NCBI GenBank assembly: GCA_963743915.1 | Contig: CAVURN010000002.1 | Coordinates: forward strand, 96,001-160,000 | Source: an uncultured Actinomycetota bacterium | GTDB lineage: Bacteria; Actinomycetota; Actinomycetes; JAHEKZ01 | Reading direction: 5' to 3' | Length of the DNA stretch: 64,000 nt | In this document: positions 6,512 through 24,433 of the stretch, one piece after another | How the letters are laid out: each line of letters starts with the position of its first letter | Position numbering within the stretch: the stretch's first letter is position 1 | Translations under genes and position numbers: made by a program | The notes under the pieces: generated by a model | The model's input: only the letters and a program-made list of their open reading frames with translations | What the model was told of the DNA's origin: nothing | The model's database searches: none

Positions 6512-7353
6512 TGCGGGCGGCGGTCCTCGGGCATCCGATCGCCCACTCGCTGTCCCCCGTGCTCCACCGCCGCGCCTACGACGAGCTCGGGCTCGACTGG
6601 GACTACCAGGCCGTCGACCTCACGGCCGACCAGCTTCCCGGATTCCTCGACTCGCTCGACGCCACCTGGGTCGGCCTCTCGCTCACCATGCCGTTGAAGG
6701 AGGCGGTGCTGCCCCTGCTCGACGACGTCGAGCCCTGGGCGGCGGTCACTGCTGCGGTCAACACGGTGCTGCTCGCCGACGGTCGTCGGCAGGGCATCAA
6801 CACCGACGTCACCGGGCTCCGCGGCATCCTGCGGGACAGCGGGGCGGTCAGCGCACCTCGTGCCCTTGTCATCGGCGCCGGCGCGACCGCCCGCTCAGCG
6901 GTCGCCGCGCTCGCCGCCGAAGGTGCCGGCTCGGTGGCGGTCAGCGCGCGCCGGTCTGATGCGGTCGAGGACCTGCGCAGCCATCTGTCCGCGCTGTCCG
7001 ACGTGCTCGGGCGCCCGCGTCCGACGATCGACGCCGAGGTCTGGCCGCCCCGGCTCCACACGTGGGACGTGGTGATCAGCACGGTGCCCGCCCGGGCCTT
7101 CGACGACAGCGCGGAGCTTCCCAGCAAGCCCTCCGGCGTCCTGCTCGACGTCATCTACGACCCCTGGCCCACGCCGCTGGCCATCGGCTGGGAGCGTGCG
7201 GGTGGCCACGTCGTCGGCGGACTCGAGCTGCTGGTCCGGCAGGCGGTCGAGCAGGTCGCGCTGATGACCGGGCGGCGCCCCACTGCCGGGCTCATGCGCG
7301 CCGCGGGGGAGTCCGTCCTGCGGTCCCGGAGATTCGCTCAAGAGGAGCAGTGA
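6508..7353 (+). CDS. aroE: Shikimate dehydrogenase
   Basis: GHPIAHSLSP, SLTMPLK, NTD, GAGATA. Confidence 0.94.
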   Translation: MMRAAVLGHPIAHSLSPVLHRRAYDELGLDWDYQAVDLTADQLPGFLDSLDATWVGLSLTMPLKEAVLPLLDDVEPWAAVTAAVNTVLLADGRRQGINTDVTGLRGILRDSGAVSAPRALVIGAGATARSAVAALAAEGAGSVAVSARRSDAVEDLRSHLSALSDVLGRPRPTIDAEVWPPRLHTWDVVISTVPARAFDDSAELPSKPSGVLLDVIYDPWPTPLAIGWERAGGHVVGGLELLVRQAVEQVALMTGRRPTAGLMRAAGESVLRSRRFAQEEQ

Positions 7354-7363
7354 CCCGGCCGAA
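7337..7363 (+). promoter_or_regulatory. FliA/WhiG (sigma28)-type promoter 1, upstream of the roadblock-DUF4388-GTPase operon
   Basis: CTCA(7337)-N17-GCCGAA(7358). Confidence 0.75.
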
Positions 7364-7437
7364 GCACCTTCAGAAGGTCCGGTGGGTGCTCTGGTGGGCC
7401 CCGGCGGACGACGCGGTTCGACCACTCGAGGTGCACC

Positions 7438-8174
7438 ATGTCAGACCCCTACGTCTCCGCCGTGAGCGGGGCTGCCGGACGTTCGACCCAGCTCGACCAG
7501 GTGCTGGGGACCCTGCTGCGTCAGGCACCGGACGTCGAGGCGGCTGCCGTGGTCTCGTTCGACGGCCTGCCCATGGCCTCGGCGTTGCCCGCCGGGATGG
7601 ACGAGGACCGAGTGGCCGCCATGTCGGCTGCCCTGCTCAGCCTCGGTGAACGTGCCGCCCAGGGCCTCGGTCGCGGCGACCTCTCGCAGGTCTACGTCGA
7701 GGGCGACTCGGGGACCGTCTTCCTGGTGAGCGCCGACGACGAGGCGGTTCTCGTCGCCGTGGCCCGGGCGGGGGCGAAGGTCGGCCTGATGCTCTTCGAG
7801 GTCAAGCAGGCCGCCGAGGCGGTCGCCACCGTGCTGCGGATCGAGGCGGACCCGCTTCCCCCGCTGGTGGTCGCCCCCACGGCCCCGCCGGTGCAGCAGC
7901 CCGTCCAGGAGCAGGTGCAGCAGCAGCCCACCCAGCAGGCCACGTGCCGCAGCCCGTCCAGGAGCAGGTGCAGGAGCAGCCGGTCCCCGTGGCCCAGACG
8001 GCGCACGACACCGACCCGCGATCGAACGGTCACGTGGCACCCGTGCCTCAGCCGACCCCCGCGCTCGAGCCGGACCCGCTCGGGGACCCGGTGCTGGAGT
8101 CCTCCTGGGACGCCGACCGGGCGCGGGACCGCCGTCCGGCGACCGTCGCCCCCGACGGGAGTGCCTGGTCCTAG
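7438..8174 (+). CDS. Roadblock/LC7 (MglB-like) protein with Q/P-rich C-terminal tail; probable frameshift near 7940
   Basis: AAAVVSFDGLPMAS, DRVAAMSAALLSLGERAA roadblock signature; tail continues in the 7944..8174 frame. Confidence 0.85.
7896..7973 (+). repeat. 25-bp direct repeat within the roadblock tail (QPVQEQVQ twice)
   Basis: gcagcccgtccaggagcaggtgcag at 7896-7920 and 7949-7973. Confidence 0.85.
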
Positions 8175-8239
8175 CCCGGGCTCCGGTGCCCGACCCCCTG
8201 ACCCCCGCCCGCACCTGTACCCGAGGAACGTGAACTGAC

Positions 8240-9469
8240 GTGAAGCTCGAAGGTTCGCTCGACGCCTTCAGTCTTCCGGACGTCTTCCAGCTGCTCAGCC
8301 TGACGAAGAAGTCCGGGGGACTTCACCTGACCAACGGTCAGGTCTCAGGCGTGGTGTATTTCGCCGGAGGCGCCGTGACCGGCGCCTCGTCCGACGCTTC
8401 CCGCCAGGCGCTGGCACGGCGCCTGGTCGGCCTGGGGGCAGCCGACGACGCGGCCCTACGGCGCGCCGTGGAGCGTGCGGCCGCGGACGGTGCCGGTGTG
8501 ACGCGGGCACTCGTCGAGGCCGGCGCCGTCGATCCCTCCGTCGTCCAGCGTCTGGCGCTCCAGCAGGTGGTCGATGCGGTGTTCGACCTGCTCCGGTGGC
8601 CGAACGGGGACTTCTCCTTCGCCATGGGCGAGGAGAACCCCGACGAGGTCGGCCTCTCGGTGCCCGCCGACCAGGTCGTCGGTGAGGCGGCCGCGCGTCG
8701 GGAGAGCTGGGAGTCGCTGTCCCGGCTGATCCCGAGCCCGGACGTGGTGCTCACCATGCCCGTGGTCGTGCCCGAAGGCACCACCGTCGCCCAGGACGAG
8801 TGGGCGCTGCTCTCCCTCGTCGACGGGGTGCGTCCCGTGGGTGAGCTCGTGGACGTCTCCGGGGCGGGACAGTTCGCAGTCGTCTCGACGCTCGGGGCGC
8901 TCCTGCAGCGGGGGCTGCTGGCGATCCGGGACGAGGAGTCCCCCGACCACATCGCGCTGGTCCGGCGGCGGCAGCAGCTGCTCGCCCCGCTGGAAGGCGG
9001 AGCCGAGGCGCCACCTGAGCCGGCCATGCCCGCCGCGGTGCCCTCCACCGATCCTGCCCCCCTCCCTTCAGGCCCGGTCGGCACCGTCGGCCTGCCCGCC
9101 TCACCTACCGCAGCCGCGGCCGCACCCCCGGCCGCCCCGGCGACCGCGCCGCTGGCCCCGGCAGCGTCCGCCGATCCCGGCGTCCTCCCGGGTGCGCACG
9201 ACCCCGCGGGCGTCGTGCCGCCCCGTCCTGAGCCGTTCCTGCCCAGACGCGAGGTCGACCACCCGGAGCCGGCCCGCGCGCCGTCCTTCGGAGCGCCCTC
9301 GGCAGGAGGGGCTCCTGTCTCGCCGCCGCTCACCGCACCGGCGGGTGCCACCGGCACCGTGGGCACGGCCACCGCAGCCCAGCCGGTGGCCGAGAGCGCC
9401 ATCGAACGTGATCCGACCGTCAACCGCAGCCTGATGCTGCGTCTCATCGCCGGTGTGCGGGGGCTCTAG
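8240..9469 (+). CDS. DUF4388 (PatA-N-like) domain protein with Pro/Ala linker and C-terminal helix
   Basis: LEGSLDAFSLPDVFQLLSLTKKSGGL start and WPNGDFSF are typical of DUF4388. Confidence 0.8.
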   Translation: MKLEGSLDAFSLPDVFQLLSLTKKSGGLHLTNGQVSGVVYFAGGAVTGASSDASRQALARRLVGLGAADDAALRRAVERAAADGAGVTRALVEAGAVDPSVVQRLALQQVVDAVFDLLRWPNGDFSFAMGEENPDEVGLSVPADQVVGEAAARRESWESLSRLIPSPDVVLTMPVVVPEGTTVAQDEWALLSLVDGVRPVGELVDVSGAGQFAVVSTLGALLQRGLLAIRDEESPDHIALVRRRQQLLAPLEGGAEAPPEPAMPAAVPSTDPAPLPSGPVGTVGLPASPTAAAAAPPAAPATAPLAPAASADPGVLPGAHDPAGVVPPRPEPFLPRREVDHPEPARAPSFGAPSAGGAPVSPPLTAPAGATGTVGTATAAQPVAESAIERDPTVNRSLMLRLIAGVRGL

Positions 9470-10045
9470 ATGGCAACGAAGCAGCGACGCAGGCACGGTG
9501 GACAGGCCGTCAAGGTCGTCATCACCGGGCCGTTCGCGGCCGGAAAGACCACCCTGATCCGGACGATCAGCGAGATCACCGTGCTCTCGACCGAGCGTGG
9601 TATCTCCGACCACACCCGGAGCCGCAAGAACGAGACCACGGTCGCGATGGACTTCGGCCGGATCACCATCGACCGCGAGCTCGTGCTGTACCTGTTCGGA
9701 ACGCCCGGGCAGGAGCGGTTCGACTTCATGTGGGAGATCCTCGGCGAGGGCATGCTCGGCTACGTGCTGCTGCTCGACGCCAACCGGCCCGAGTCGCTCG
9801 CGGAGGCCGTCGGGATCCTCGACGCCTTCCGGCGGATGGCCCGCGTTCCCTTCGTCGTGGCCCTGAACCGGACCGAGGGTGTCGACGAGGTCGAGGAGGC
9901 CCGGATCCGTCAGGCGCTCTCGCTGGACGCGGCCGTGCCCCTGGTCCCGTGCGACGCCACCGACAAGGAGTCGGTCAAGGCAGTGCTGCTGGCCCTGCTG
10001 TACGCCGTGCTCGACGAGGTCGAGACCGCCAAGGCCGGGGTCTAG
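9470..10045 (+). CDS. MglA-family small Ras-like GTPase
   Basis: G1 GPFAAGKTT, G2 TTVAMDFG, G3 GTPGQ, degenerate G4 NRTE, G5 CDA. Confidence 0.9.
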   Translation: MATKQRRRHGGQAVKVVITGPFAAGKTTLIRTISEITVLSTERGISDHTRSRKNETTVAMDFGRITIDRELVLYLFGTPGQERFDFMWEILGEGMLGYVLLLDANRPESLAEAVGILDAFRRMARVPFVVALNRTEGVDEVEEARIRQALSLDAAVPLVPCDATDKESVKAVLLALLYAVLDEVETAKAGV

Positions 10046-10057
10046 TCCGAGCCGGTC

Positions 10058-10336
10058 ATGCTGTGGACCAGGCGGCGTGTCCGCGAGCCGCGAGGACGAC
10101 ACCGGGCCGCGGCGACGACAGCCGTCCCGCCGGTCCCGGTCTCTCCCGTCCCGGTCCCAGCCGGCCGCCGTGCCAGCCGCCGCCCCGTCCTTGCGCCGCA
10201 CGTTCCCGCGTCGACCCCGGTCGAGCCTGGAAGCGGCGTCCACCTCGGCTTCGCCGACGGCTCGGCGCTGGAGCTGGGGTCGGGGGACCCGCGGGTCGGC
10301 GCGTTCCGCGCCGTCGCCCGGACCCTGCGCGGCTGA
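10058..10336 (+). CDS. Small hypothetical protein
   Basis: Co-oriented ORF 12 bp after the GTPase; ordered-looking C-terminus VHLGFADGSALEL...AFRAVARTL. Confidence 0.55.
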   Translation: MLWTRRRVREPRGRHRAAATTAVPPVPVSPVPVPAGRRASRRPVLAPHVPASTPVEPGSGVHLGFADGSALELGSGDPRVGAFRAVARTLRG

Positions 10337-10372
10337 GGCTGCGCGGCTGATGCTGCGCGGTTGACCCCGCGG

Positions 10373-10398
10373 CTCAAGGGAGCCGCGACGGCGCCGAT
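10373..10398 (+). promoter_or_regulatory. FliA/WhiG-type promoter 2, upstream of pilB
   Basis: CTCA(10373)-N16-GCCGAT(10393). Confidence 0.8.
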
Positions 10399-10467
10399 CT
10401 AGACAACGACGTCGGCACCTCCGGGGCGCACCCGCCTCGGTCGCAGCCGTGCGGGGAGGACACGCGC

Positions 10468-12135
10468 GTGAAGCAGCTGGGCGACATCCTGTTGCAGGAC
10501 GGTCTGGTCACCGAGGACCAGCTCTTTGCTGCGTTCCAGGAGCACAAGGAGCAGGGCAAGGCGCTGGGCCGGGTGCTCGTCGACCGTGGGTTCCTCACCG
10601 AGTCCCAGCTCGTCGCGGCCCTGGCCCAGCAGATCGGGCTCGAGTTCGTCGACCTGGCGGACTACCCGGTCGACGGCAGCATGATCGCCCGGGTGTCAGG
10701 GGCGATCTGCCGGAAGCACTCGGCGTTGCCGCTGCGGGCCGACGACGAGGGCAAGCTCATGCTCGCCATGGCCGACCCTGCGAACGTGTTCGCCATCGAC
10801 GACATCCGTTCCCTGACCGGGATGGACATCCGGCCGGTCGTGGCGACGCGCGCCGACGTGATCGCGGCCATCGACCGGTACTACCGGGCGGACTCGGAGA
10901 TCGACGACCTCACCGCGGCGATGGACAACGCCGACGACGACGAGGACCTGTCCAACCTCAAGGAGGTCGTCGAGGACGCCCCCATCGTCAGGTTCGTGAA
11001 CCTGCTGATCACGCAGGCGATCCAGGACCGCGCGTCCGACATCCACCTCGAACCGGGGGAGCACGCGCTGGTCGTGCGCTACCGGATCGACGGTGTCCTG
11101 AAAGACGTCATGAAGTCTCCGAAGAACATCCAGTCGGGCGTGATCAGCCGGCTGAAGATCATGTCGGACATCAACATCGCCGAGCGCCGGGTTCCGCAGG
11201 ACGGTCGGCTCTCGGTGACGCACCAGGGCAAGAAGATCGACCTCCGCGTGGCGACGTTGCCCACGGTCTGGGGCGAGAAGGTCGTCATGCGCATCCTGGA
11301 CAACTCGACGGCGCGGATGGAGCTGTCCGACCTCGGCTTCTCCGCCCTCAACTACGACATCTACTCGAAGAGCTTCATCAAGCCCTACGGGATGATCCTG
11401 GTGACCGGTCCCACCGGCTCCGGTAAGTCCACGACGCTCTATGCGACGCTGAACCAGATCGCGCGGCCCGAGGTCAACGTGATCACGGTGGAGGACCCGG
11501 TGGAGTACCGGCTCCCGGGCATCAACCAGGTGCAGACCAACGTCAAGGCAGGGCTGACGTTCGCGGCCGCCCTCCGGTCCATCCTGCGCTGTGACCCCGA
11601 CATCGTGCTGATCGGTGAGATCCGCGACCACGAGACGGCGCAGATCGCCGTCGAGGCGGCCCTGACCGGCCACCTGGTGCTCTCCACGCTGCACACCAAC
11701 GACGCCCCCTCGGCGGTCACCCGCCTGACCGAGATGGGTCTGGAACCGTTCCTCGTGGGCTCTGCCCTGGACTGCGTGCTCGCCCAGCGCCTGGCCCGCA
11801 GGCTCTGCAGCAAGTGCAAGGAGCCGTACGAGCCCTCGGCGGAGGCGCTGCTGACCGCCGGCTTCCCCTGGGAGGAAGGCACACCGCTGCCCACGCTGTA
11901 CCGCGCCGCTGGCTGCTCGGCCTGCTCCAAGACCGGGTACCGGGGTCGACTGGCCCTGCACGAGGTCATGGCGGTCTCCGAGACCATCGAGCGGCACGCC
12001 GTCGAGCACGCCTCAGCCACGGTCATCGCGCAGACAGCGAGGGACGAGGGCATGCGCACACTCCGCGATGACGGGATGCTGAAGGCCGCCGACGGGATCA
12101 CCACGATCGACGAGATCCTCCGCGTCGTCGTCTGA
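10468..12135 (+). CDS. pilB: Type IV pilus extension ATPase PilB with N-terminal MshEN-like domain
   Basis: ASDIH, RYRIDG, PQDGR, GPTGSGKST, GEIRD, STLHTN, two CxxC pairs; LGxxLxxxG repeats at N-terminus. Confidence 0.95.
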   Translation: MKQLGDILLQDGLVTEDQLFAAFQEHKEQGKALGRVLVDRGFLTESQLVAALAQQIGLEFVDLADYPVDGSMIARVSGAICRKHSALPLRADDEGKLMLAMADPANVFAIDDIRSLTGMDIRPVVATRADVIAAIDRYYRADSEIDDLTAAMDNADDDEDLSNLKEVVEDAPIVRFVNLLITQAIQDRASDIHLEPGEHALVVRYRIDGVLKDVMKSPKNIQSGVISRLKIMSDINIAERRVPQDGRLSVTHQGKKIDLRVATLPTVWGEKVVMRILDNSTARMELSDLGFSALNYDIYSKSFIKPYGMILVTGPTGSGKSTTLYATLNQIARPEVNVITVEDPVEYRLPGINQVQTNVKAGLTFAAALRSILRCDPDIVLIGEIRDHETAQIAVEAALTGHLVLSTLHTNDAPSAVTRLTEMGLEPFLVGSALDCVLAQRLARRLCSKCKEPYEPSAEALLTAGFPWEEGTPLPTLYRAAGCSACSKTGYRGRLALHEVMAVSETIERHAVEHASATVIAQTARDEGMRTLRDDGMLKAADGITTIDEILRVVV

Positions 12136-12180: not shown

Positions 12181-12207
12181 CTCAAGGGGTGACCCCCACA
12201 GGCCGAT
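12181..12207 (+). promoter_or_regulatory. FliA/WhiG-type promoter 3, upstream of pilT
   Basis: CTCA(12181)-N17-GCCGAT(12202). Confidence 0.8.
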
Positions 12208-12275
12208 GGTCGCTACAGGAGCACCACTGACGAGGTGGTGCACGTGGTGCGACGGCGCCCAAGGAGGCAACACTC

Positions 12276-13944
12276 GTGGAGACCACGAACTTCAGCGGCC
12301 CACCGCAGGGCGACGACGACGCGTCGGACGCCGGACGCGGCGAGGACCTCAACTTCTTCGCGCCGGCACCCGCGCCGACCACCGTCGCCGAACCGGCGGC
12401 TGAGCCTGCGCCTGAGCCCGAGTACCGCGCGGAGGCGGAGGCACCCGTCGAGTTCCAGCCCGAGCCGGTCTCCGAGCAGTCCGCCGAGCCTGCTCCGACC
12501 TTCGACCCCGGCGCTCTGGACGCCCCGAGTCTGCTCGCGCCGGAGGAGGTCGTGCCTGACGCCGGGTCCGGTCTGCCGATGTCGTTGGCGATCGCCGCAG
12601 AAGAGGCCGCCACGGTCGACGTCGAGAGCGCACCCGAACCCGCCGTCCTTCGACTACCAGGCCTTCATGGACCAGCCGGCCGATGCCGAGGCGGCTCCTG
12701 ACCCCGTCGAGACGGTGTCCGAAGCCGCACCGGTGGAGGAGGCAGCCGTCGACTACTCCGACCCGCAGCCGGCCCCCGTGGACTACGCGACCCCCGAGAC
12801 GATGGTCGAGCTCGCCGACTCAGAGGCCGAGGAGGCCGCGTACTCGCGCGTGACCACCGAGCCCACGCTGGGCGGCGAGGACATCGTCCTGGTCGACCTG
12901 CTGCTGCACATGCTGGAGATGGGCGCCTCCGACCTGCACATCACAGCGGGAGCACGCCCGGCGATCCGCGTCAACGGCGAGCTCTTCCAGATGGACGACT
13001 TCCCCGTCCTGACACCGCCGGTCATCCAGCGGGTCATGTACGCGGCGATCACGCAGCGCCAGCGGGAGATCTTCGAGGAGCAGCTCGAGCTCGACTTCGC
13101 CTACTCGGTCCCGGGGCGTGCGCGGTTCCGCGTCAACATGTACCGGCAGCGGGACTCGGTGGGTGCCGCTTTCCGCATCATCCCCTTCGAGATCAAGAAG
13201 CTCGAAGACCTGGGTGTCCCGCAGACGGTCGCCAACTTCGCCGCCCTGCCGCGTGGGTTCGTCCTCGTCACCGGTCCGACCGGTTCGGGCAAGTCCACCA
13301 CCCTGGCGTCGCTGCTCGACCTCGCGAACCGCACGCGCAAAGAGCACATCATGACGTGTGAGGACCCGATCGAGTTCCTCCACCGCCACCAGCAGTGCCT
13401 CGTGAACCAGCGTGAGGTGGGGGAGGACACCCACTCGTTCCAGAACGCGCTGAAGCACGTGCTGCGGCAGGACCCCGACATCATCCTGGTCGGTGAGATG
13501 CGTGACCTCGAGACCATCGGGGTCGCGCTGACCGCTGCAGAGACCGGTCACCTCGTCTACGCCACCCTGCACACGCAGGACGCGGCACAGACCATCGACC
13601 GTGTCATCGACGTCTTTCCTCCGCACCAGCAGCAGCAGGTTCGCGCGCAGCTCGCGCAGGCGATCCAGGGCGTGGTCTGCCAGACCCTGGCCCGGACGGC
13701 GGACGGCAAGGGCCGCGTGGTCGCCTGTGAGGTCATGGTGGCCACCCCGGCCATCCGGAACCTGATCCGTGAGGGAAAGACGCACCAGATCTACTCGGCC
13801 ATGCAGGCCGGCGCCAAGCACGGGATGCAGACCATGGACCAGCACCTGGCTGACCTGGTGAACAAGGGCCGGATCACGCACGAGACCGGCATCGAGAAGT
13901 GCCACCACATCGAAGACTTCAACCGGCTCACCGGCCGCGCCTGA
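12276..13944 (+). CDS. pilT: Type IV pilus retraction ATPase PilT with long acidic N-terminal extension; frameshift near 12630
   Basis: ASDLH, RFRVN, GPTGSGKST, EDPIE, GEMRD, AIRNLIRE; RBS AAGGAGG before GTG 12276. Confidence 0.93.
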
Positions 13945-13958
13945 CGGGAGCGTCACAC

Positions 13959-15202: not shown

Positions 15203-15229
15203 CTAAAGACGGTGTCCGCGTGGGTCGAA
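15203..15229 (+). promoter_or_regulatory. FliA/WhiG-type promoter 4, upstream of riboswitch and major pilin
   Basis: CTAAAG(15203)...GTCGAA(15224), i.e. TAAA-N16-GTCGAA. Confidence 0.72.
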
Positions 15230-15251
15230 GTAGTACCCGTACAGAGCCAAC

Positions 15252-15821: not shown

Positions 15822-15857
15822 CCTGAGCACGAAGCGGTGCAAGCTGCCGCACTCACG

Positions 15858-15891
15858 ACGAGGGGCCCGTACTCCGGTACGGGCCCCTCGT
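15858..15891 (+). terminator. Intrinsic terminator hairpin after major pilin
   Basis: acgaggggcccgtac-tccg-gtacgggcccctcgt. Confidence 0.85.
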
Positions 15892-16022
15892 TCGTCGTCG
15901 AGCCTGCGCTTCGTTCACCCGATCGGGCGTACCGGGTGCACAGCGTCCGGTATCCGAAACACAGAGAGCACACATTGTCATGCGTCTCGACCGGTCGGGA
16001 CCGAGCCACCACGGAGGGGGAG

Positions 16023-16508
16023 ATGCACCGAAGACAACGAGCCGGCCCTTGCCGCCGGCCCCACCACAACTGCATCAAGTGTCGTGAGCATCCCGAGAGC
16101 GGGTTCACGTTGATCGAGCTGCTGGTCGTCATCATCATCATCGGCATCCTGGCGGCCATCGCGATCCCGGTCTTCCTGAGCCAACGGGCCAAGGCCCACG
16201 AGGGTGCGGCCAAGACCGACATCAGAACCTGGCCACGCAGCAGGAGCTCTACCTGACCGAGAACCAGACGTACGGCGCCATCGCGACCCTGAGTCGCCGA
16301 CGGGATGGACATCCGGGTCGGTCCGAGGACATCACGCTGTCGGTGGTGCGCTTCGACACCGCGAACGTCCTTCTGCCTGTCGGCGTCGCACGCCGCTCCG
16401 GGGACGACGTTCTACTACGACAGCGCGGCTGGCGGACTGCAGCCCTCGGGATCGGCCGGCTGCCCGGTGACGGTCGCCGGGGCAGCCGGTGACTCCATCA
16501 CCGGCTGA
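16023..16508 (+). CDS. Second major-type pilin (frameshifted) with Cys/His-rich leader
   Basis: G|FTLIELLVVIIIIGILAAIAIPVFL identical to pilin 1; C-terminus SFCLSASH...YYDSAAGG...GCP. Confidence 0.8.
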
Positions 16509-16519
16509 CGATGACGCAC

Positions 16520-16560
16520 GCGTGAGCCGGGGCCGACGATCCGTCGACCCCGGCTCACGC
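16520..16560 (+). terminator. Hairpin after second pilin
   Basis: gcgtgagccggggccgacg-atc-cgtcgaccccggctcacgc (one mismatch). Confidence 0.7.
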
Positions 16561-16585
16561 TCAAGACCGGTCCCTTCCTGCCGAT
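16560..16585 (+). promoter_or_regulatory. FliA/WhiG-type promoter 5, upstream of minor pilin operon
   Basis: CTCA(16560)-N16-GCCGAT(16580). Confidence 0.8.
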
Positions 16586-16620
16586 AGGCCAGTAGGGCAG
16601 CCGTACCCCCAGGAGGCATT

Positions 16621-18244
16621 GTGATCGCCAGGATCCGACGTGGTCTGCAGCACGACAGCGGGTTCTCGCTGATCGAGCTGATCGTGGCACTGAGCATCGC
16701 CATGGTGATCTTCTCGGCGATGGCCGCTGCAGCGATCGCCGGAGTCCGGGCCTCGGTGGTGGCGCGGCAGAACCAGCAGGCGGTCGACGTCCTCAACGAG
16801 GTCGTCGAGGCCGGTCGCGGTGTCGACGTACGCCAATCTGGCGATGGTGACCACCGACCTCGGCGGGGACCCCGCGATCTCCGGCGAGCCCGACACCGAA
16901 GTACACCGTGCCGAACGGCGTCGGTGCCGAGGACGTCTGGGCACAGGCGACCGGGTCGATCAGCCCGCATATCACGACCGAGACCGGGTCGAACGGCCTG
17001 GATTACACCGTGGCCCGGTACGTGACCGTGCCGGCGGGAGTGACCTCGGACACCGCCGGCCAGCCGATGCAGAAGCGCTACACGGTGGTGGCCACCTGGA
17101 CGTCGTACGGGCAGACCCACGAGCGTGTCGTCTCCACCCTGGTCACCGAGACGCAGCGTGGCCTTCCGCTGCCGCGATACTCGGTGGCCGCGACGTCACC
17201 GCAGACTCAGACCAAGAACCCGAGCACGGTACTCACCTGGGGCTTCCAGGTCATCAACCGCGGTGCGCGCGACACCTTCAACATCTCGGCCTCGACGGGT
17301 ACGTGGGACTACTACGTCGATGCCAACTGCAACGGGGGCCTCGATGCCGGTGAGACCACGGCACTCACCAACACCGACTCCGCGACGGGGAACACGGCGC
17401 CCGACACCGGCCAGATCGAGCCGAACAACTACCCGCCGTACTGCGTGCTGGCCACCCGGACCATCCCCAGCACCGAGCTCGGCACCTCTTCGGTCGTCTT
17501 CACGCTGACCTCGTCCGCACAGCCCACCGCTTCCGGGGCCGTCGTCACGACACCGATCCTTCACGGTCAACGTGACGACCGGCGCGGTCGGCGGTGGCTC
17601 GAGCAGCGGCGGCAGCACCTCGCCTGACGCCTGCGTTCCGAGTGCCAGCCTTGCCGTGCAGGGCTCGGGCACCACGCTCACCGCGTTCGGCCTGAAGAAC
17701 GGTGCGGACCACTGGCGCCACGACAACCCAGCTGGTGAACCTCTTCGACCAGGCCACCTGTGCTCCGCAGTCCCAGGACTACAACTTCTCGACCGACGTC
17801 GCTGACGGGGCCACTGTCGGCCGTGCGCTGCAGGGCGGAGGCAGTGCGACCTCCGCGGTGGCGAGGCAGATGGGGGAGTGGCGCTGGAACCCGCCGGCGG
17901 ACCGCACCTTCAACGGAACCGCCTCCGCATCGCTCACCGTCAAGTGCCTGTCCTCCACGGGCAGTGCCACGATCAACGTCGCGCTGGGCACCTTCACGCA
18001 GAAGACGTCGACGTGGGCGAGCAAGGCGACCGGCACCAAGACCGTCACGTGTGCCACCACGACCAGCTGGACGACGGTCGAGGTGCCGCTGCCCATCAGC
18101 ACCGCCTTCGTCGTCAAGAACAAGGTCACCGGTCAGCCGCAGTACCTGTCGATGCGGGTGTGGTCCGCAGCTGGCAGCGCGAACCTGCGGATGAACTACG
18201 AGTCGCCCACCAACAAGTCCTTCCTCACCGCGTCGATGGGATGA
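16621..18244 (+). CDS. Large minor pilin / putative tip adhesin (~540 aa reconstructed across several frameshifts)
   Basis: G|FSLIELIVAL signal followed by Thr/Ser-rich beta-like segments in frames 16820, 16908, 17572 and 17702. Confidence 0.7.
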
Positions 18245-18879
18245 CGATGAGCCGCTTGCATGCAGCCCGGCAGACGCTGGTTGACCGGACGTCGCCCCAG
18301 GGTCGGGTGGACGCGGGCTTCACCCTGCCCGAGATGCTCGTCTCCATGATCATCATGGGCGATCTTCGGCACCCTGGCGGTCTTCGCTTGATCTCGGTCA
18401 ACGAGACCTTCCGGGTGACCGACGACGAGGCGACGGGCCTGGCAGACACACGGACCGTGGTCGAGCGGCTGGGACGTGACATCCGGGCGGCCCGCGGCGT
18501 GGACGCAGGGGCCACCGAGAGCACTCTGGTGCTGTGGGTGGACTACAACTCGGACTACATCCGCAGCCCGAGCGCCCAGCCGGACGAGATCGTGACGTGG
18601 TCGCTGGTGAGCCAGGGTTCGGGAAGCACGCAGTACAACACGCTGCGTTCGACTGCGGGTGGTACCGCGGTGGTGCAGGCCCGCACCCTCGTCTCCGACC
18701 TCGCGTTCTGCTACCAGAGCGAGCACGACCGCGCCCTGCTTCACGACTCCGCTGTCGGTCGCGGACGCGGAGGACACCCGACTCGTCACGGTCGACCTCG
18801 ACGTACGACTCGCTGGTCGTCCTCTGGCGGGGACGAGCGAACCACGTCGTTCTCCGAGCGGATCAGGAATGTGAGCTGA
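18241..18879 (+). CDS. Minor pilin (PilW-like), with internal frameshifts
   Basis: G|FTLPEMLVSM, ERLGRDIRAA, C-terminal IRN. Confidence 0.75.
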   Translation: MTMSRLHAARQTLVDRTSPQGRVDAGFTLPEMLVSMIIMGDLRHPGGLRLISVNETFRVTDDEATGLADTRTVVERLGRDIRAARGVDAGATESTLVLWVDYNSDYIRSPSAQPDEIVTWSLVSQGSGSTQYNTLRSTAGGTAVVQARTLVSDLAFCYQSEHDRALLHDSAVGRGRGGHPTRHGRPRRTTRWSSSGGDERTTSFSERIRNVS

Positions 18880-18880
18880 C

Positions 18881-20293
18881 ATGAACCGACGAAGTGCCTG
18901 CTGCGGCGACTCCGGGCCGAGGACGAGGGCATCGGTCTCATCCTGGTCATCGGACTGAGCGCGGTCATGGCGATCCTGATCACGGTCATGACGACCGTGG
19001 CCATCCGTTCCCTGAACTCGAGCAGCGACCACGTCCGGTTCGAGCAGTCGCTGGCAGCGGCCGAGGCCGGGATCGACCGCGAGCTGGCCAACATCCAGAC
19101 CGCCCGCAACCAGGTGCCACCGGTCGCCTACACCGGTACCGCCGGGTGCGTGCCCTCGGCGGCGCCGGCCGGGACGTTCTCGTCCGAGGCGAGCGAGAAG
19201 GCATGGGCGCGCACGGCGCTCGAGGCGCTCCCGACCTCGTGCACCGAGAGCAACGGAGAGGGCGAGTTCGTGGCCTTCAAGGATCCGGCGCGCCAGGTGG
19301 TGTACTCCCTGGGCTGGTCACCGGAGCGCTCGGCGGCGAATGCCAAGAGCCGGCTGCTGAAGGCCGAGTACATCTTCGCTCCCTTCCGGCCGGGTCAGGC
19401 GATCCTCACCGGCTGGTGACCTCGACTTCTCCGGGTCGGTCGCGGTGAACGCGATCGCGGGGCTGCCGGCAGACATCCACACGAACTCCAACGTCATCGG
19501 GATCAACAACAGCGTGAGCGCGACCGGTTCCCTCACTGCGTCGGGAACCCTCTCCGGCTGCTCGAGCGGCGTCGTCGGCGGCTGCACCGCGGGTCAGCCG
19601 CAGGAGCGGGTGCCGGTGGCGAACCCGCGCGCGGTCTACCAGGACTACGCGCTGACGACCTCCGCAGTGGTTCGACCTCTGCCCCGACGGCACCGTGCGG
19701 TCACCGTCGGCCGACACCGCTGCCACCACCGACGGGCCCTGCACCGGCAGCCTGATCGCCAACAGCCCCTACAACAACTGGGTCTACACGGCGGGGAACG
19801 CCACGACACCGGGCAAGTGGGTGGTCGACAATGCAGCCACCCAGTACCCGGGTGTGTACTACGTGTACGGCGCCAACGCCCAGCTGGGAGACAACGGCAA
19901 CTCCAATGACAGCGTGACCCTCACCGTCCTCGCCGAGTCGACGACGCCCGTCGGGTTACACGAATGCCGCCACGTGCAACAAGTACGGCGGCGACATCAC
20001 CTGGAAGCTGTTCAACGTCCAGAACTACCTGCGCGGGACCCTCTTCATCGCGGAGGGCTCGTTCTACGGCAGTGCCAACTCGATCGGCGTCGGCCGGTGT
20101 CATGCTCGCCGGCGACAAGATCGACCTCAACACCTCGAGCGGTACGGTCACCGGATCCGTGATCGCCAACAACACCTGCGCGGCGGCGGGAGCGAACGAG
20201 ATCCAGGGCATGACGGTGACCTACGACCAGTCGGTCGAGGCCCCCGTCTACAGCGTGGTGAACACCACGCTGTGGCTGGAGTACGTGGGCTGA
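18881..20293 (+). CDS. PilX-like minor pilin with large C-terminal domain (frameshifted)
   Basis: DEG|IGLILVIG signal lacking Glu5, and SLAAAEAGID PilX motif. Confidence 0.72.
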
Positions 20294-20342
20294 CGGCGCG
20301 CCGTCCGGCGTGCGCACCACTGCGATGAGTTAGATCGTCTCC

Positions 20343-21127
20343 GTGGAGATCTACTTCGGGGTGCTGCTCGCCGTCGTCGGCCTGCTCATCGGGTCGTTCC
20401 TCAACGTCGTCATCGCCCGCGTGCCGGCCGGGGAATCGGTGGTCAGCCCGCGCTCCCGCTGCCCTCGCTGCGGCACCGAGATCGCTGCGCGGGACAACAT
20501 CCCGGTGGTGTCCTGGCTGCTGCTGCGCGGGCGGTGCCGCTCGTGCGCGGAACCGATCTCGGTGCGCTACCCCTTGGTCGAGCTGGGCCACGCCGCCCTG
20601 TGGCTCGTCATGCTCGCGACGATCGGGTGGACCTGGGAGCTGCCTGCCTACCTCTACCTGGCCTCGGTGGGGCTGGCTCTGGCGGTCATCGACCTGGACA
20701 CCAAGCGGCTGCCCGACCCCCTGACCCTGCCGAGCTACGTGGTGGTCGGCCTGCTGCTGCTCCTTCCTGCGGTGGCCGACGGGGACTGGTCCGCCTACCT
20801 GCGGGCGTGGCTGGCGGCCGCCGCCCTGTTCGCCTTCTACTTCCTGCTCCTGGTCGTCTACCCCGGTGGGATGGGGTTCGGGGACGTGAAGCTGGCCGGC
20901 GTGCTGGGGCTGGCCCTCGGCTGGCTCGGGTGGGGAGTGCTCCTCGTGGGCGGCTTCCTGGGCTTCTTCCTCGGTGCCGTCGTCGGCGGCGCGCCTGATG
21001 CTCGTCCGGCGGGCGGGTCGGAAGTCGAAGATCCCGTTCGGCCCCTTCATGCTGCTCGGCACCCTGATCGGCGTCGCTGTGGGGCGAGCCGCTGTGGGAC
21101 GCCTACGTCTCCGCCATGGGTCTGTAG
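20343..21127 (+). CDS. pilD: Prepilin peptidase/N-methyltransferase (frameshifts near 20990 and 21083)
   Basis: GSFLNVVIARVP, two CxxC, GGMGFGDVKL, IPFGPF. Confidence 0.93.
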
Positions 21128-21159
21128 CACTCCCGGCCGACAAGAAATGTGAGTTAGCG

Positions 21160-21186
21160 CTCAAGGGCGGGGCCCGTCGCGCCGAT
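21160..21186 (+). promoter_or_regulatory. FliA/WhiG-type promoter 6, upstream of pilM
   Basis: CTCA(21160)-N17-GCCGAT(21181). Confidence 0.8.
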
Positions 21187-21258
21187 CATCCGGCAGACAT
21201 AGTCCAAAAGGACTCACCCACCTGGCGCAATGTCGCCGTCGGTGCGAAGGGGACAGAC

Positions 21259-22326
21259 GTGGCCGCACGAACCGCCATCGGCCTGGACATCGGCACGTCC
21301 GGCGTCCGGGCAGCCGAGCTCACGTTCGGCAAGTCAGGCATCACGCTCGACAAGTTCGGTCAGGTCGCGCTCCCTGAGGGCGCGGTCCGTGACGGCGAGG
21401 TCGTCCGACCGGCCGCCGTGGCCGAGGCGATCCGCCAGCTGTGGACGCACACCAAGTTCTCCGGCAAGGACGTCGTCGTCGGCGTCGCCAACCAGAAGGT
21501 GATCGTCCGCCAGCTCGACCTGCCGTGGCAGACGATGGACGAGCTGCGCAAGACGCTCCCGTACGCGCTGCCCGACGGCACCATCCCGATGTCCGTGGAC
21601 CAGGCGATCCTCGACTTCTACCCGCTCGACGAGCTCGCCTCGGACGACGGCACGCGGATGCTCCGCGGCCTGCTCGTGGCGGCGCAGCGCGACATGGTCG
21701 AGAAGCAGCTCGAGGCCGTGCACGCCGCCGGCCTCAAGCCGGTCATGGTCGACCTCACCGCCTTCGCCGTGCTGCGGTCGCTGGCCGAGAGCGACGACCT
21801 GGGCATGGGCAGCACCATGGAGGCCCTGGTCGACGTCGGTGCCCGCGTCACCAACATCATCGTCCACGAGGGTGGCATCCCGCGGTTCGTCCGCATCCTG
21901 CTGATGGGCGGCGCCGACGTCACCGACGCCCTCGCCGAGCGCACCGGCTCGGAGAACACCGAGGCCGAGGCCATGAAGCACGAGATGGGCATGACCACGG
22001 ACACCGGGGACGCGCGCGCGCAGGCTGCGGGTCGCGTCATGGAAGCAGCCGGCCAGGCGTTCATCGACCAGGTCCGTACCTCCCTGGACTACTACACCGC
22101 GTCCCCCGGCTCGCGTCCGATCGACCGGATCGTCCTGACGGGCGGAGGGTCGCGTCTCGTCGGCCTCGCCGAGCGGCTGCAGAACTCCACGCGGATCGAG
22201 GTCCAGCGCGGCACCGCCTTCGGCGAGCTCGCGATCGGCAAGACCGGCCTCAGCCGCGAACAGATGGAATTCGTCGAGCCCCTGGCCGCCGTGCCGGTCG
22301 GCCTCGCCCTGGGAGCTGCCTCATGA
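21259..22326 (+). CDS. pilM: Type IV pilus assembly protein PilM
   Basis: IGLDIGTS, VDVGA, LTGGGS, VGLAL actin-like motifs. Confidence 0.93.
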   Translation: MAARTAIGLDIGTSGVRAAELTFGKSGITLDKFGQVALPEGAVRDGEVVRPAAVAEAIRQLWTHTKFSGKDVVVGVANQKVIVRQLDLPWQTMDELRKTLPYALPDGTIPMSVDQAILDFYPLDELASDDGTRMLRGLLVAAQRDMVEKQLEAVHAAGLKPVMVDLTAFAVLRSLAESDDLGMGSTMEALVDVGARVTNIIVHEGGIPRFVRILLMGGADVTDALAERTGSENTEAEAMKHEMGMTTDTGDARAQAAGRVMEAAGQAFIDQVRTSLDYYTASPGSRPIDRIVLTGGGSRLVGLAERLQNSTRIEVQRGTAFGELAIGKTGLSREQMEFVEPLAAVPVGLALGAAS

Positions 22327-23018
22327 CCACCTTGACCCCCACCCGCCTGGCCGCGATGCCGCGGGTCAACCTGCTCCCGCCGGAGATCGCGGCTGCGGCC
22401 CGGCTGAAGCGGACCAAGGCGCTGCTCGGGTTCGTGATGCTCGCCGCCATGGCGGCCGTCGTCCTCGTCTACCTCGTCGTCAGCAGCCAGGTCGGCGGCG
22501 CCGAGGAGGAGCTCGCGACGGCCCAGGCGCAGGGCGCTGCCCTGCAGAGCCAGGTGAACGAGTACGCCGAGGTGCCGGAGGTCCTCGCGGCCGTCGACGC
22601 CGCGCAGGCCAACCTCACCACCGCGATGACGCCCGAGATCCGCTGGTCGTTCTACCTCAACGACCTGAGCCTCTCGATCCCCAAGACCACCCGTCTGGCC
22701 AGCATGACGGCGGTGAACACCGCGGCCGCCGCACAGCTCGACCCCGCGGCCGCGGCCCTGAACCCCTCGGTGACACCACTGGGTGAACCCACCATGGGCA
22801 CCGTCACCTTCACCGGCAGCGCGACGGACTTCGACGCGGTCGCGTCCTGGCTGCAGACGCTCGCTCGTCAGGAGGGCTACACCGAGCCCACCGTGACCAG
22901 CGTCCAGAAGTCCGACGCCGAGGACACCGTCGGTGAGTTCTACGAGGTCGAGACCTCCACCGCACTGACCCCTGAGGCGGCGTCCAACCGCTACCTCCAG
23001 ATCGCGACAGGTGAGTGA
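22323..23018 (+). CDS. pilN: Type IV pilus assembly protein PilN
   Basis: VNLLP motif, single TM, coiled coil. Confidence 0.88.
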   Translation: MTTLTPTRLAAMPRVNLLPPEIAAAARLKRTKALLGFVMLAAMAAVVLVYLVVSSQVGGAEEELATAQAQGAALQSQVNEYAEVPEVLAAVDAAQANLTTAMTPEIRWSFYLNDLSLSIPKTTRLASMTAVNTAAAAQLDPAAAALNPSVTPLGEPTMGTVTFTGSATDFDAVASWLQTLARQEGYTEPTVTSVQKSDAEDTVGEFYEVETSTALTPEAASNRYLQIATGE

Positions 23019-23019
23019 C

Positions 23020-23686
23020 ATGACCGTTTCCCGGAAATGGACCATGGGGACGGCCCTGGTGGCGCTCCTGGTGCTCGTCGCCGGCTGGTTCCTGCTCATC
23101 GCTCCCAAGCGGGGCGAGGTGGCGGACCTGCAGGCGCAGGCCGACGAGCAGCTGAGCACCAACAGCTCGCTGCAGATCCAGCTCGAGCAGCTCAAGCAGC
23201 AGAACAAGGACCTGCCCGAGAAGCAGGCCGAGCTCGCCGAGCTGCAGACCCGCATCCCGGAGACGCCCGACCTGACCGGCTACATCCGTGAGCTGCAGGA
23301 CATCGCTCGCCAGGCGGATGTCGGGCTGGTGTCGATGACGCCGGCGGCTGCTGTCACGTTGGGTCAGCCGGTCACCGAGCTCGGTGCGGGTCTGGCACCG
23401 GAGTCGCTGGCAGCGATCGACGTCGAGGTCGTCGTGGAAGGTGACTACACCGGCATCGAGCGCTTCTTCAACGAGATGGAGACGACCGAGCGCTACACCC
23501 TGGTGGGCGGCTACACGATCGCCGAGGTCGAGGACACCGAGGACACCAGCGGTGTCGCGGCGCCCGACGCTGACCGCCACGATCAACGCCCGCATCTACC
23601 TGGTTCCGACCACCCCCGAGGGCACCACGACCACCGCGCCCGCCACCGCGCCGACCCCGGCGCCGACCACGGCGACCGCCTCCTAG
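23020..23686 (+). CDS. pilO: Type IV pilus assembly protein PilO (frameshift near 23563)
   Basis: N-terminal TM, coiled coil, RIP, VEGDY..IERFF; follows pilN. Confidence 0.85.
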
Positions 23687-23694
23687 GAGCTCCG

Positions 23695-24381
23695 ATGTCA
23701 GACACCATTGCGCAAGAGCCCCTCGAGGGCCTGGACGACACCGCGAACGCCTCCGGCGGCAGCCGACGGCTCCTGATGCTGGTTGCGGGTGGCGCTGCGG
23801 TCCTCGTCCTCGCCCTGGCTGTGTACTTCCTGTTCCTGTCCGGTGGGGACGAGGAGGTGGCCGGCCCGGCCGCACCCGTTCCCGCGCCGACGGCGCCGGA
23901 GAAGACCGACAAAGGCGACAAGGACAAGGCCGGCTCCGACGTCCCCAAGGAGGTCGACGAGGACTTCGCCGTGGGGCGAGACCCGTTCCAGCCGCTCGCC
24001 GTCGAAGCCATCGTCGAGGAGGAGCCCGCGGTCACCGACACCGGCGACACCGGCACCGGTACCGACCCCGTGACCGACCCGGGCACTCCGGCACCGGCGC
24101 CCACCGTGGCACCGCAGCCGGCGCCGACCGTCGAACCGACCACCACCTACCAGGTGAAGCTCATCTCCGTCGACCTGGTCAAGGAGAAGGCCACCATCGC
24201 GGTGGACGGCAAGCGGTACGTGGTCGCCGTCCAGGTCACGTTCCCGAACACCAAGACCGGGCCGTTCCAGCTGACCAGCGTCGGGGAGCGCCCCTCGGGC
24301 AAGGACACCGCCACGGTGGTGTTCGGCTCCGACGCGCCCGTCGAGCTGGTCCAGCGGGACAAGGTGACGTTCGAGAACTGA
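23695..24381 (+). CDS. Membrane-anchored PilP-like protein
   Basis: Single TM, disordered linker with RDPF motif, C-terminal beta domain; occupies pilP position. Confidence 0.6.
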   Translation: MSDTIAQEPLEGLDDTANASGGSRRLLMLVAGGAAVLVLALAVYFLFLSGGDEEVAGPAAPVPAPTAPEKTDKGDKDKAGSDVPKEVDEDFAVGRDPFQPLAVEAIVEEEPAVTDTGDTGTGTDPVTDPGTPAPAPTVAPQPAPTVEPTTTYQVKLISVDLVKEKATIAVDGKRYVVAVQVTFPNTKTGPFQLTSVGERPSGKDTATVVFGSDAPVELVQRDKVTFEN

Positions 24382-24395
24382 ACACTCACTCCACA

Positions 24396-24433
24396 GCAGA
24401 CGGACGGCCCGCGCGAGCGGGCCGTCCGTCTGC
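24396..24433 (+). terminator. Hairpin terminator closing the pilus cluster
   Basis: gcagacggacggcccgc-gcga-gcgggccgtccgtctgc. Confidence 0.85.

Follow-up and report, generated by a model that had tools for sequence, protein, structure and literature searches.

In a 64,000-nucleotide stretch of DNA from an uncultured Actinomycetota bacterium (GenBank contig CAVURN010000002.1, here G000:C2:96001-160000; hereafter the window), the genes for a type IV pilus are preceded by a short operon encoding a roadblock/LC7 protein, a protein with a PATAN (DUF4388) domain, a small GTPase and a small conserved protein. These four genes are tightly packed behind a single conserved, predicted promoter of the sigma-28 type, and throughout Actinomycetota they lie directly upstream of pilB-pilT-pilC. 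Comparative sequence analysis lends very strong support to a pilus-dedicated role, and the operon is very probably a dedicated, and so far uncharacterised, pilus regulator. With a probability of roughly 0.7, the four genes would encode a small-G-protein module dedicated to the pilus and transcribed together with the type IVa pilus genes by a single sigma factor of the FliA/WhiG type. The components are of known kinds, namely a GTPase/roadblock pair, a PATAN protein and a sigma-28-controlled pilus cluster; what is new is their combination.

It is almost unknown how cells without an outer membrane, notably actinobacteria, time and place the building and retraction of pili, and the operon is a compact, phylum-wide candidate for such a regulator. 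It joins three subjects so far treated separately, namely the polarity control exerted by MglA/MglB, the cyanobacterial PATAN regulators that touch PilB, and the conservon G-protein systems with their obscure outputs, and it brings a set of regulatory genes into the WhiG/FliA-controlled pilus regulon. As its output is written into the gene order and the cell has a single such system, it offers a cleaner setting for the mechanics of the trio than the 13 conservons of Streptomyces.

Organisation of the locus

The window belongs to a 2.9 Mb assembly of 70% G+C in five contigs, 90% complete. Genes were called by frame analysis of third-position G+C content (GC3), Pfam and NCBIfam. On the + strand the order is mltG, aroE, roadblock, PATAN/DUF4388, GTPase, small open reading frame (ORF), pilB, pilT, pilC, pilins, pilD, pilMNO and aroC, with aroK and aroB after aroC. 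A preliminary description of the same DNA, made from the letters alone, had listed these genes between aroE and aroC, and the Pfam and NCBIfam calls bear that list out:

6475-7353, + strand: aroE (shikimate dehydrogenase), the upstream flank; Pfam Shikimate_dh_N E 2.7e-23
7438-8174, + strand: Roadblock/LC7 (MglB/CvnB-like) gene; Pfam Robl_LC7 E 2e-18
8240-9469, + strand: PATAN/DUF4388 protein; Pfam DUF4388 E 4.8e-25
9470-10045, + strand: small GTPase, wide-sense MglA family (GTPGQ type); ATP_bind_1 E 7.5e-21, Ras E 2e-6
10058-10336, + strand: small conserved ORF, 92 aa; no Pfam or NCBIfam family
10468-12135, + strand: pilB extension ATPase; T2SSE E 6.6e-138, MshEN E 6.7e-24, TIGR02538 654 bits
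12276-13944, + strand: pilT retraction ATPase; TIGR01420 487 bits (cut-off 319)
13899-15179, + strand: pilC platform protein; T2SSF E 1e-67
15417-17025, + strand: three pilin or minor-pilin genes; N_methyl matches, prepilin signals at 15459, 16101 and 16660 by motif scan
17026-20340, + strand: ORFs of no known family, gene calls unsure; a weak N_methyl match only in 17878-18879
20343-21152, + strand: pilD prepilin peptidase; A24_N_bact E 4e-35, Peptidase_A24 E 1.4e-14
21280-24381, + strand: pilM, pilN-like and pilO-like genes, starts approximate; PilM_2 E 4.6e-49, PilN E 4e-5, T2SSM/PilO weak
24469-25671, + strand: aroC (chorismate synthase), the downstream flank; Chorismate_synt E 3e-116

The start of the GTPase gene abuts the stop of the PATAN gene, and in most actinobacterial loci, as here, aroE sits 5' of the roadblock gene. 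With PilB, PilT, PilC, PilM/N/O, a prepilin peptidase and pilins bearing class III signals, the cluster encodes a retractile type IVa pilus. No secretin was found genome-wide, at 90% completeness, as expected for a cell without an outer membrane. The ORFs of 17026-20340 are likely to encode minor pilins or accessory proteins. Genome-wide profile and homology scans found one Robl_LC7 protein, one DUF4388 protein and one GTPase of this family, and the roadblock-PATAN-GTPase operon is the cell's only small-G-protein system.

Linkage to pilus genes across genomes

A scan of species-representative genomes for the GTPase yielded 80 loci, which were compared by tblastn with the window proteins. The nearest relatives are found among Actinomycetes, Candidatus Nanopelagicales, Sporichthyaceae, Frankiales and Motilibacteraceae, nearly all as metagenome-assembled genomes. 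In 52 of the 58 Actinomycetota loci pilB lies downstream on the same strand, at a distance of 15 bp to 7.3 kb (median about 0.5 kb), and is usually followed by pilT and pilC. Upstream of the GTPase, roadblock and DUF4388 genes were present in every locus with enough flank (49/49). Three of the remaining Actinomycetota loci are too short to judge and three have no pilB within 3 kb or more. Of these exceptions, L038 has pilB 11.5 kb downstream on the same contig, behind an insertion, and L074 and L094 diverge together from the rest, on a long branch of the GTPase tree. The arrangement extends to Nitriliruptorales and to 'Candidatus Solincola' (Geothermincolaceae).

A second sample consisted of 300 other genomes spread evenly over the phylum, each at least 90% complete. 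The GTPase was found in 49 of them (E <= 1e-45) and pilB in 216 (E <= 1e-80). When coordinates were compared by hand, 46 of the 49 GTPase genomes had pilB within about 2.5 kb on the same contig, or 40 of 43 when six unpublished genomes are left out (G272, G261, G215, G062, G092 and G046). The other three were not judged, the GTPase of G107 and G182 lying at a contig edge and the pilB row of G239 not being listed. Throughout the sampled genomes the module occurs only where pilB is present or the contig is cut. Its carriers include the complete genomes G206, G111, G255 and G316. The preliminary description had asked for such a neighbourhood survey and had staked its proposal on linkage in related genomes; the link between trio and pil genes clearly holds.

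Outside the phylum (Chloroflexota, Aquificota and one unassigned; 22 loci), pilB was found in none of the 14 loci with at least 3 kb of downstream sequence. Still closer paralogues in Chloroflexota pair a PATAN gene with a GTPase gene, and no pilus gene lies within 10 kb of them.

Some loci depart from the common layout. Genes that resemble polysaccharide synthesis or export genes, judging from translations read by eye, occupy 6-11.5 kb between the small ORF and pilB in L042 (10576-16587), L047 (10576-17922) and L038 (10546-20546). The 'Solincola'-type loci L061, L063, L064, L069 and L070 contain two tandem roadblock genes; in loci of this type the PATAN proteins have 1081-1273 residues, and aroE stands between the GTPase gene and pilB.

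A candidate sigma-28-type promoter in front of the operon

The actinobacterial WhiG/FliA consensus has been given as T(A/C)AA-N16-GCCGA or CTCA-N16-17-GCCGA (PMC12871210). Pilus clusters driven by WhiG/FliA are documented in Rubrobacter and Actinoplanes (PMC8325347, PMC12871210), and such control has been shown or predicted for several other families as well. In the window, candidate promoters of this kind precede the roadblock gene and several of the pilus genes:

7337-7365, + strand: promoter candidate CTCAAG-N15-GCCGAAGC, before roadblock; overlaps the end of aroE
10373-10400, + strand: promoter candidate CTCAAG-N14-GCCGATCT, before pilB
12181-12209, + strand: promoter candidate CTCAAG-N15-GCCGATGG, before pilT
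15204-15231, + strand: one-mismatch site TAAA-N16-GTCGAAGT, before the first pilin; a weaker match
16560-16587, + strand: CTCAAG-type promoter candidate, before a minor pilin
21160-21188, + strand: promoter candidate CTCAAG-N15-GCCGATCA, before pilM

On its + strand the 17 kb block contains six matches to the CTCA-N16-17-GCCGA form of the consensus, where the density in the remainder of the genome would predict about 0.47 (Poisson P about 1e-5). An extended CTCAAG box is shared by five of these, which stand before roadblock, pilB, pilT, a minor pilin and pilM; the sixth, at 10909 within pilB, is probably due to chance. In the form CTCAAG-N14/15-GCCGA, five sites fall in the gaps of the block and 17 occur in the genome as a whole, the 12 outside the block being mostly intragenic or in front of ORFs of no assigned name.

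Conservation across loci is a stronger argument for these predicted promoters than enrichment in the window. In 33 of 48 orthologous loci the 200 bp in front of the roadblock gene contain the strict motif, compared with 305 of 11000 random 200-bp windows from the same loci (2.8%), and several of the 15 loci that lack it have one-mismatch versions. The two boxes are constant between loci, while the spacer sequence varies freely. The same motif was found before DUF4388 in 0 of 49 loci and before the GTPase gene in 2 of 54. A motif that stands before roadblock, and hardly ever before DUF4388 or the GTPase gene, is what would be expected if a single promoter served all three genes. Before pilB the strict motif occurs in 14 of 44 loci, and the gap between pilB and pilT contains a motif in 27 of 49. 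In some lineages, then, pilB is read from a predicted promoter of its own; where the gap is just 15-80 bp it is probably reached by read-through.

The genome encodes one FliA/WhiG sigma factor (G000:C1:725323-726000; TIGR02479 284 bits, cut-off 190), and no flagellin was found in it (90% complete). With consensus sites within 200 bp of start codons and a cognate sigma factor present, the cluster has the sequence hallmarks of a WhiG/FliA regulon, and the claim of the preliminary description that the GTPase operon carries the same sigma28-type promoter as the pil genes is upheld at the level of the motif. Relative to the WhiG/FliA control of pili already known, what is new is a G-protein regulatory operon in the same predicted promoter set. 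No RsiG was found among all ORFs of at least 60 aa in this 90% complete genome with the motif E-x3-S-x2-R-x3-[QH]-x3-D; six ORFs matched it, of which just one has coding-like GC3, and that one resembles an HNH nuclease. Five identical TCAA-N16-GCCGA matches on contig C5 were also set aside as chance, being inside tandem paralogous genes on the other strand.

A metatranscriptome (run X17) contains contigs with 2-4 differences from the window over roadblock (7477-7853), the junction of GTPase gene and small ORF (9869-10114), and from 10378 into pilB. These hint at expression; the indication is weak, since contigs give neither strand nor start and DNA can occur in such libraries.

Elsewhere in the genome (G000:C3:358690-359138), a 138-codon ORF whose N-terminus includes a hydrophobic segment has a CTCAAG-type site 35 nt in front of it and may be a further sigma-28 target.

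The GTPase and its roadblock partner

An alignment of 32 sequences shows the P-loop of the GTPase to be intact (GPFAAGKT); G2 contains Thr-Thr, and G3 reads GTPGQ without exception (32/32). The G2 region, 'ETTVAMDFG', places a Thr at the arginine-finger position. In the classification of PMC4316618, Group 1 (true) MglA is marked by TVPGQ in G3 and an intrinsic arginine finger, and Groups 2-5 by GTPGQ and by Thr, not Arg, in G2. GTPGQ together with Thr thus excludes Group 1 and places the GTPase with Groups 2-5. With a roadblock gene two genes upstream in 49 of 49 loci, it belongs to the MglA family in the wide sense (Groups 1-5, PMC4316618).

The G4 motif differs between lineages. It reads NKQD or TKQD in Chloroflexota, NKxx in Nitriliruptorales-type sequences and NR[T/S/A/P]x in class Actinomycetes, compared with NCFD in a conservon GTPase. 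The NRTE of the window (region 9866-9880) is without the Asp of the canonical Group 5 [NT]KxD, and the nucleotide preference of the class Actinomycetes enzymes may have changed. The G5 motif, DAT or DAR, is that of Groups 2 and 3. Even the best phmmer matches among solved structures were weak (IFT22 E 5.5e-5; MglA E 0.002). The GTPase is 73-79% identical across families of the class and 43-49% identical to conservon paralogues.

A maximum likelihood tree was built from 96 rows after identical sequences had been collapsed. It left out L062 and L075 (truncated, no P-loop) and eight further rows, namely an IF2-like match, L077_3902 (no PGQ) and six duplicates. Ten conservon-type paralogues form a clade of their own on a long branch, with a Shimodaira-Hasegawa-like approximate likelihood ratio (SH-aLRT) support of 100, and the window GTPase is not among them; the pilus-linked GTPases have short branches and are highly conserved. 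One of the conservon loci, L131, was confirmed as a complete conservon, with a HATPase_c/HAMP kinase, Robl, DUF742 and a GTPase, the G4 of which is NCFD. The tree contains no true Group 1 MglA and is rooted on one Rup-like row with a branch length of 10, which is unreliable; the apparent nesting of the CvnD clade among pilus-linked sequences therefore gives no direction of descent. When five Chloroflexota and Aquificota genomes were searched with the GTPase, only GTPGQ-type paralogues and unrelated GTPases were recovered, and no Group 1 MglA.

The roadblock protein consists of a Robl domain, a Q/P/V-rich linker and a conserved C-terminus ending '...DGSAWS'. A long low-complexity tail with a conserved, Trp-containing end is found in most Actinomycetes and Nitriliruptorales-type loci. 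Among solved structures the best agreement is with a 'Robl_LC7 domain' (7f8m, E 3e-22), CvnB5 (3leq, 3.5e-11) and Rv3364c (5e-10), compared with E 0.25-0.8 only for MglB. The protein contains an Asp-Gly pair ('FDGLP') of the kind described for the roadblock partners of Groups 2-5 (Wuichet and Sogaard-Andersen, PMC4316618). The term 'MglAB-like', used in the preliminary description, is therefore apt at the level of the superfamily; it does not extend to true MglA/MglB, in view of GTPGQ, the missing arginine finger and a roadblock protein far closer to the CvnB type than to MglB.

The PATAN protein

The second gene of the operon encodes a member of the PATAN/DUF4388 family, scoring 88 bits against Pfam PF14332 (cut-off 25) and carrying the alpha-helical insertion. 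In an AlphaFold model with a predicted local distance difference test score above 93 for residues 1-250, the PATAN domain spans residues 1-158, with a four-helix insertion (57-118) between strands, and is followed by a winged helix at about 162-235 and then a helix. Beyond this lies a disordered linker rich in Pro and Ala; an alignment of 29 sequences (A1) shows that its length varies greatly and that a stretch 'VVPPRPEPFLP' within it is semi-conserved. The last helix is nearly invariant, reading '...IERDPTVNRSLMLRLIAGVRGL' or '...ERDPSVNRSLLLRLIAGVRGL', and is retained in Chloroflexota homologues as '...KRSLVSRIINRIRGM'.

The helical insertion finds its best fold matches in the N-terminal domains by which MshE, Xanthomonas PilB and Thermus PilF bind cyclic di-GMP (c-di-GMP), although these matches are weak (Foldseek probability 0.87-0.97, E 0.65-0.9, about 52 residues; VIA Z 5.0-4.0). 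The likeness is in line with statements by Makarova et al. and Han et al. on the 'alpha-clip'. For the protein as a whole Foldseek gave no match at E <= 0.001, and VIA matched the winged helix only. The core sheet of the PATAN domain alone gave nothing above Z 5 with Foldseek or VIA, and no claim of a new fold is made. The winged helix (162-236) was matched by VIA to winged helices of GATOR1/SEA subunits and others at Z 9.4-8.3, the highest score being to a GATOR1 chain, with many MarR/AsnC regulators at about 6; as the winged helix is a common fold, no function is drawn from these matches. A complex prediction for PilB 1-300 with PATAN 1-260, from 29-row alignments, gave no answer (score 0.00) and is evidence neither way.

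In the block itself Pfam found neither a kinase nor DUF742, and genome-wide, at 90% completeness, DUF742 had no match even at E <= 1. Nevertheless, the C-terminal part of the PATAN protein shows some likeness to DUF742. When hhalign was run against a DUF742 alignment, the winged helix (P 0.014) and the last helix (P 0.061) aligned collinearly, flush with both C-termini. Short-linker Chloroflexota homologues aligned over both parts at once (E 1.2e-4, probability 55%, 73 columns), whereas full-length A1 reached E 0.28 only. DUF742 proteins end in '...NLKVLESVLNGISAL'. An unrelated winged helix of 66 residues is also picked out by the DUF742 profile, at 1.5e-4, and the score may in part reflect features that winged helices share in general. 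The earlier statement that there is 'no kinase or DUF742' here is thus correct by Pfam, with the qualification that the PATAN protein occupies the CvnC slot and aligns weakly with DUF742.

These likenesses suggest a line of descent that we regard as doubtful, in which the pilus-linked operon would be an older, kinase-less conservon, with CvnC/DUF742 derived from the C-terminal half of a PATAN protein after loss of the domain that binds the pilus, CvnD a fast-evolving offshoot of the slowly evolving pilus-linked GTPase, and the PATAN protein of present-day carriers a motor-anchored guanine nucleotide exchange factor (GEF) that turns the GTPase on at the pilus base. If this were true, the Streptomyces conservons and the mycobacterial Mfp system would descend from a type IV pilus regulator.

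A proposed mechanism and its alternatives

In mycobacteria MfpD is the GTPase-activating protein (GAP), and the DUF742 protein MfpC the GEF, of the GTPase MfpB (PMC11343762). In Synechocystis, PATAN domains bind the N-terminal domains of PilB1 and PilC and suffice to redirect pilus assembly (bioRxiv 10.1101/2021.06.11.447907). By analogy, the GTPase of the window would be a switch, and a dimer of the roadblock protein would be its GAP, as MglB is for MglA and MfpD for MfpB. As the PATAN protein occupies the CvnC/MfpC slot and its cyanobacterial counterparts bind the pilus motor, it is proposed as the motor anchor of the switch, which would couple the two by binding the N-terminal part of PilB and/or PilC. 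It could perhaps also be a GEF, loading the GTPase with GTP at the motor. The state of the GTPase would then set the activity or placement of PilB, and the output would be when or where PilB builds pili, whether as polarity, reversal or plain activation. The preliminary description had spoken of a dedicated positioning or reversal module. The dedication is supported by the tie to the pilus genes (52/58 and 46/49 in the two samples); polarity or reversal finds no support over on/off control of assembly.

Pilus extension may also come under direct c-di-GMP control, as the N-terminus of PilB (10468-10630, residues 1-55) contains a tandem MshEN-type c-di-GMP-binding motif (NF053729 63 bits, cut-off 38).

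Polarity and reversal would be the output if this were a true MglA/MglB switch, with the GTPase at one pole and its roadblock GAP at the other, and switching relocated PilB and PilT so that the cells reversed. The proteins are of the same superfamily pair, the linkage is to both pilB and pilT, and the roadblock protein has a long C-terminal tail with a conserved end. Myxococcus MglB has a regulatory C-terminal helix, which this tail recalls. MglA/MglB position pili in Myxococcus and Thermus (PMC4316618). We nonetheless consider a polarity switch of this kind unlikely, since the features of Group 1 are missing (GTPGQ in place of TVPGQ, Thr in place of the arginine finger) and similarity to the solved proteins is marginal, at E 0.002 for MglA and 0.25-0.8 for MglB by phmmer. 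The resemblance to conservons raises the alternative of a kinase-less conservon-like module with a transcriptional or other non-pilus output through the PATAN winged helix, the pil genes being merely old residents of the same aroE-aroC interval. In its favour, the gene order is that of cvnB-cvnC-cvnD, identity of the GTPase to its conservon counterparts is 43-49%, the PATAN protein includes a winged helix, and MfpC has a predicted DNA-binding domain (PMC11343762). Such an output is very unlikely given that the GTPase orthologue never occurs without pilB in the sampled genomes, bar one contig-edge case, that the pil promoters are common to the operon, that spacing to pilB is often 15-80 bp, and that PATAN domains described elsewhere are tied to pilus motors. 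The closest Chloroflexota homologues have no pilus link, so the module can work elsewhere, an observation that cuts both ways.

Several observations weigh against the pilus-dedicated module itself. Of the 216 genomes in the phylum sample that have pilB, about 168 lack the module, and G141, a member of the same class with pilB and pilT 73-78% identical to those of the window, keeps aroE and pilB-pilT-pilC-pilD without the trio. As most pilB genomes lack it, the module is an accessory to some actinobacterial pilus systems and not a core part of the pilus. The promoters are motif candidates, and the short consensus is common, with 165 sites in this 70% G+C genome, so that a single match carries little weight; the CTCAAG extension was chosen once the block had been viewed, which inflates its P value. 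The hallmarks of MglA, TVPGQ and the arginine finger, are absent from the GTPase, and with a degenerate G4 in class Actinomycetes even its specificity for guanine is not assured. The winged helix predicted in the PATAN protein would be equally compatible with binding to DNA and a role in transcription. Finally, frame changes in the roadblock and pilT genes, described below, could, though less probably, reflect decay in this strain and not assembly error.

In G141, the slot of the trio (L139, G141:C1:1250300-1270200, 5400-9990) holds two mobile-element-like ORFs which, from translations read by eye, resemble a group II intron reverse transcriptase and a transposase.

Relation to known systems

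The operon shares with Group 1 MglA/MglB of Myxococcus xanthus and Thermus thermophilus a Ras-like GTPase gene beside a roadblock/LC7 gene and a tie to type IV pili; PATAN genes are sometimes found near the Group 1 pair too (PMC4316618). It differs in having GTPGQ, no arginine finger and only marginal sequence similarity, and, unlike mglBA, which is unlinked to its partners in the account of PMC4316618, its genes lie within the pilus cluster itself.

With the conservons/AGPS (CvnA-D; MfpB-E) it has in common the order roadblock, middle protein, GTPase, as well as GTPGQ, a DAT/DAR-type G5 and a roadblock protein closest to CvnB-type structures (3leq E 3.5e-11, Rv3364c E 5e-10). Unlike them it has no CvnA kinase, the upstream neighbour being aroE, and no Pfam DUF742, and its middle protein contains a PATAN domain. 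Its GTPase lies outside the CvnD (Group 2) clade, with a G4 of NRTE and not NxFD. There is one copy per genome, the output of which is tied to pili.

The cyanobacterial PATAN-REC regulators PixG, PixE, LsiR and TaxP likewise have a PATAN domain with an 'alpha-clip' insertion; their reported partners are PilB1 and PilC N-terminal domains and their role is to steer pilus assembly. In contrast to these, the PATAN protein here has no receiver domain, so that input would come from the GTPase and not from phosphorylation, and it adds a winged helix, a long disordered linker and a conserved C-terminal helix.

As in the WhiG/FliA pilus clusters of Rubrobacter and Actinoplanes, the same consensus occurs several times inside the pil cluster. 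Unlike here, roadblock, GTPase and PATAN genes go unmentioned among the targets in the main text of those reports (PMC8325347, PMC12871210). Already in print are neighbourhoods of MglA/MglB homologues with PATAN genes, the PATAN-PilB link in cyanobacteria and WhiG/FliA control of actinobacterial pilus clusters. A roadblock-PATAN-GTPase operon within actinobacterial pilus clusters was not found described in the literature, in keeping with the preliminary description, which knew of no characterised actinobacterial example; the supplementary tables of PMC4316618, PMC8325347 and PMC12871210 may list such genes. A 2026 survey of AGPS (PMC13343842) refers to no PATAN/DUF4388 protein, and to type IV pili only for Bdellovibrio MglA, in the text outside its supplementary tables, which may likewise list such genes.

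Gene models and frameshifts

Two genes of the cluster are broken in the window as printed. The roadblock ORF, printed as 7438-8238, changes frame near 7938-7944: its printed tail is implausibly rich in Arg, Ser and Pro, and near 7930 the GC3 signal leaves frame 0 for frame 2. Orthologues end in '...RRPA.VA.DGS.WS', the very ending that frame 2 of the window gives, closing at 8174. Contigs from other metagenome runs, X1, X2 and X14 (for which contigs only were compared), have indels at 7938-7944 of +10, -2 and +10 nt relative to the window, all of them +1 modulo 3, which restores a single frame. The pilT gene has an acidic N-terminal extension that opens at 12276 in frame 2 and goes on in frame 0, with the shift near 12639-12646. 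It is one continuous ORF in the orthologous loci L021 and L024, and the contigs of X2 and X14 have one base fewer at 12639 or 12646. Because these other runs read through, both shifts are taken to be indel errors of this assembly. Frequent GC3 frame changes are also seen in the second pilin (about 15822-16470) and in the ORFs at 17-20 kb, and more indel errors are therefore likely there.

The extension of PilT is acidic and disordered in the clade of the window. In a Nitriliruptorales metagenome-assembled genome (L059 6905-7583) it reads instead as a GspE_N/MshEN-type domain.

Contig C5 contains, on its minus strand, three to five tandem paralogous genes of about 550 codons each (G000:C5:228689-233625). 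Their conserved region reads like what we take to be the signalling domain of methyl-accepting chemotaxis proteins and, no flagellin being found, these chemoreceptor-like proteins might feed into pilus control.

The protein encoded by the small ORF has a basic N-terminus, a Pro-rich middle and a conserved end, '...GFADGS..L....DPR..AFRA.A..L'. By tblastn (E <= 0.001) it was detected in 19 of the 80 loci, each time directly behind the GTPase gene. This pattern points to a real gene, conserved in close relatives, with the conservation in the C-terminal 35 residues. The 3' end of the ORF (10325-10338) differs between populations, with a 14-base deletion in X1 and a 2-base insertion in X14.

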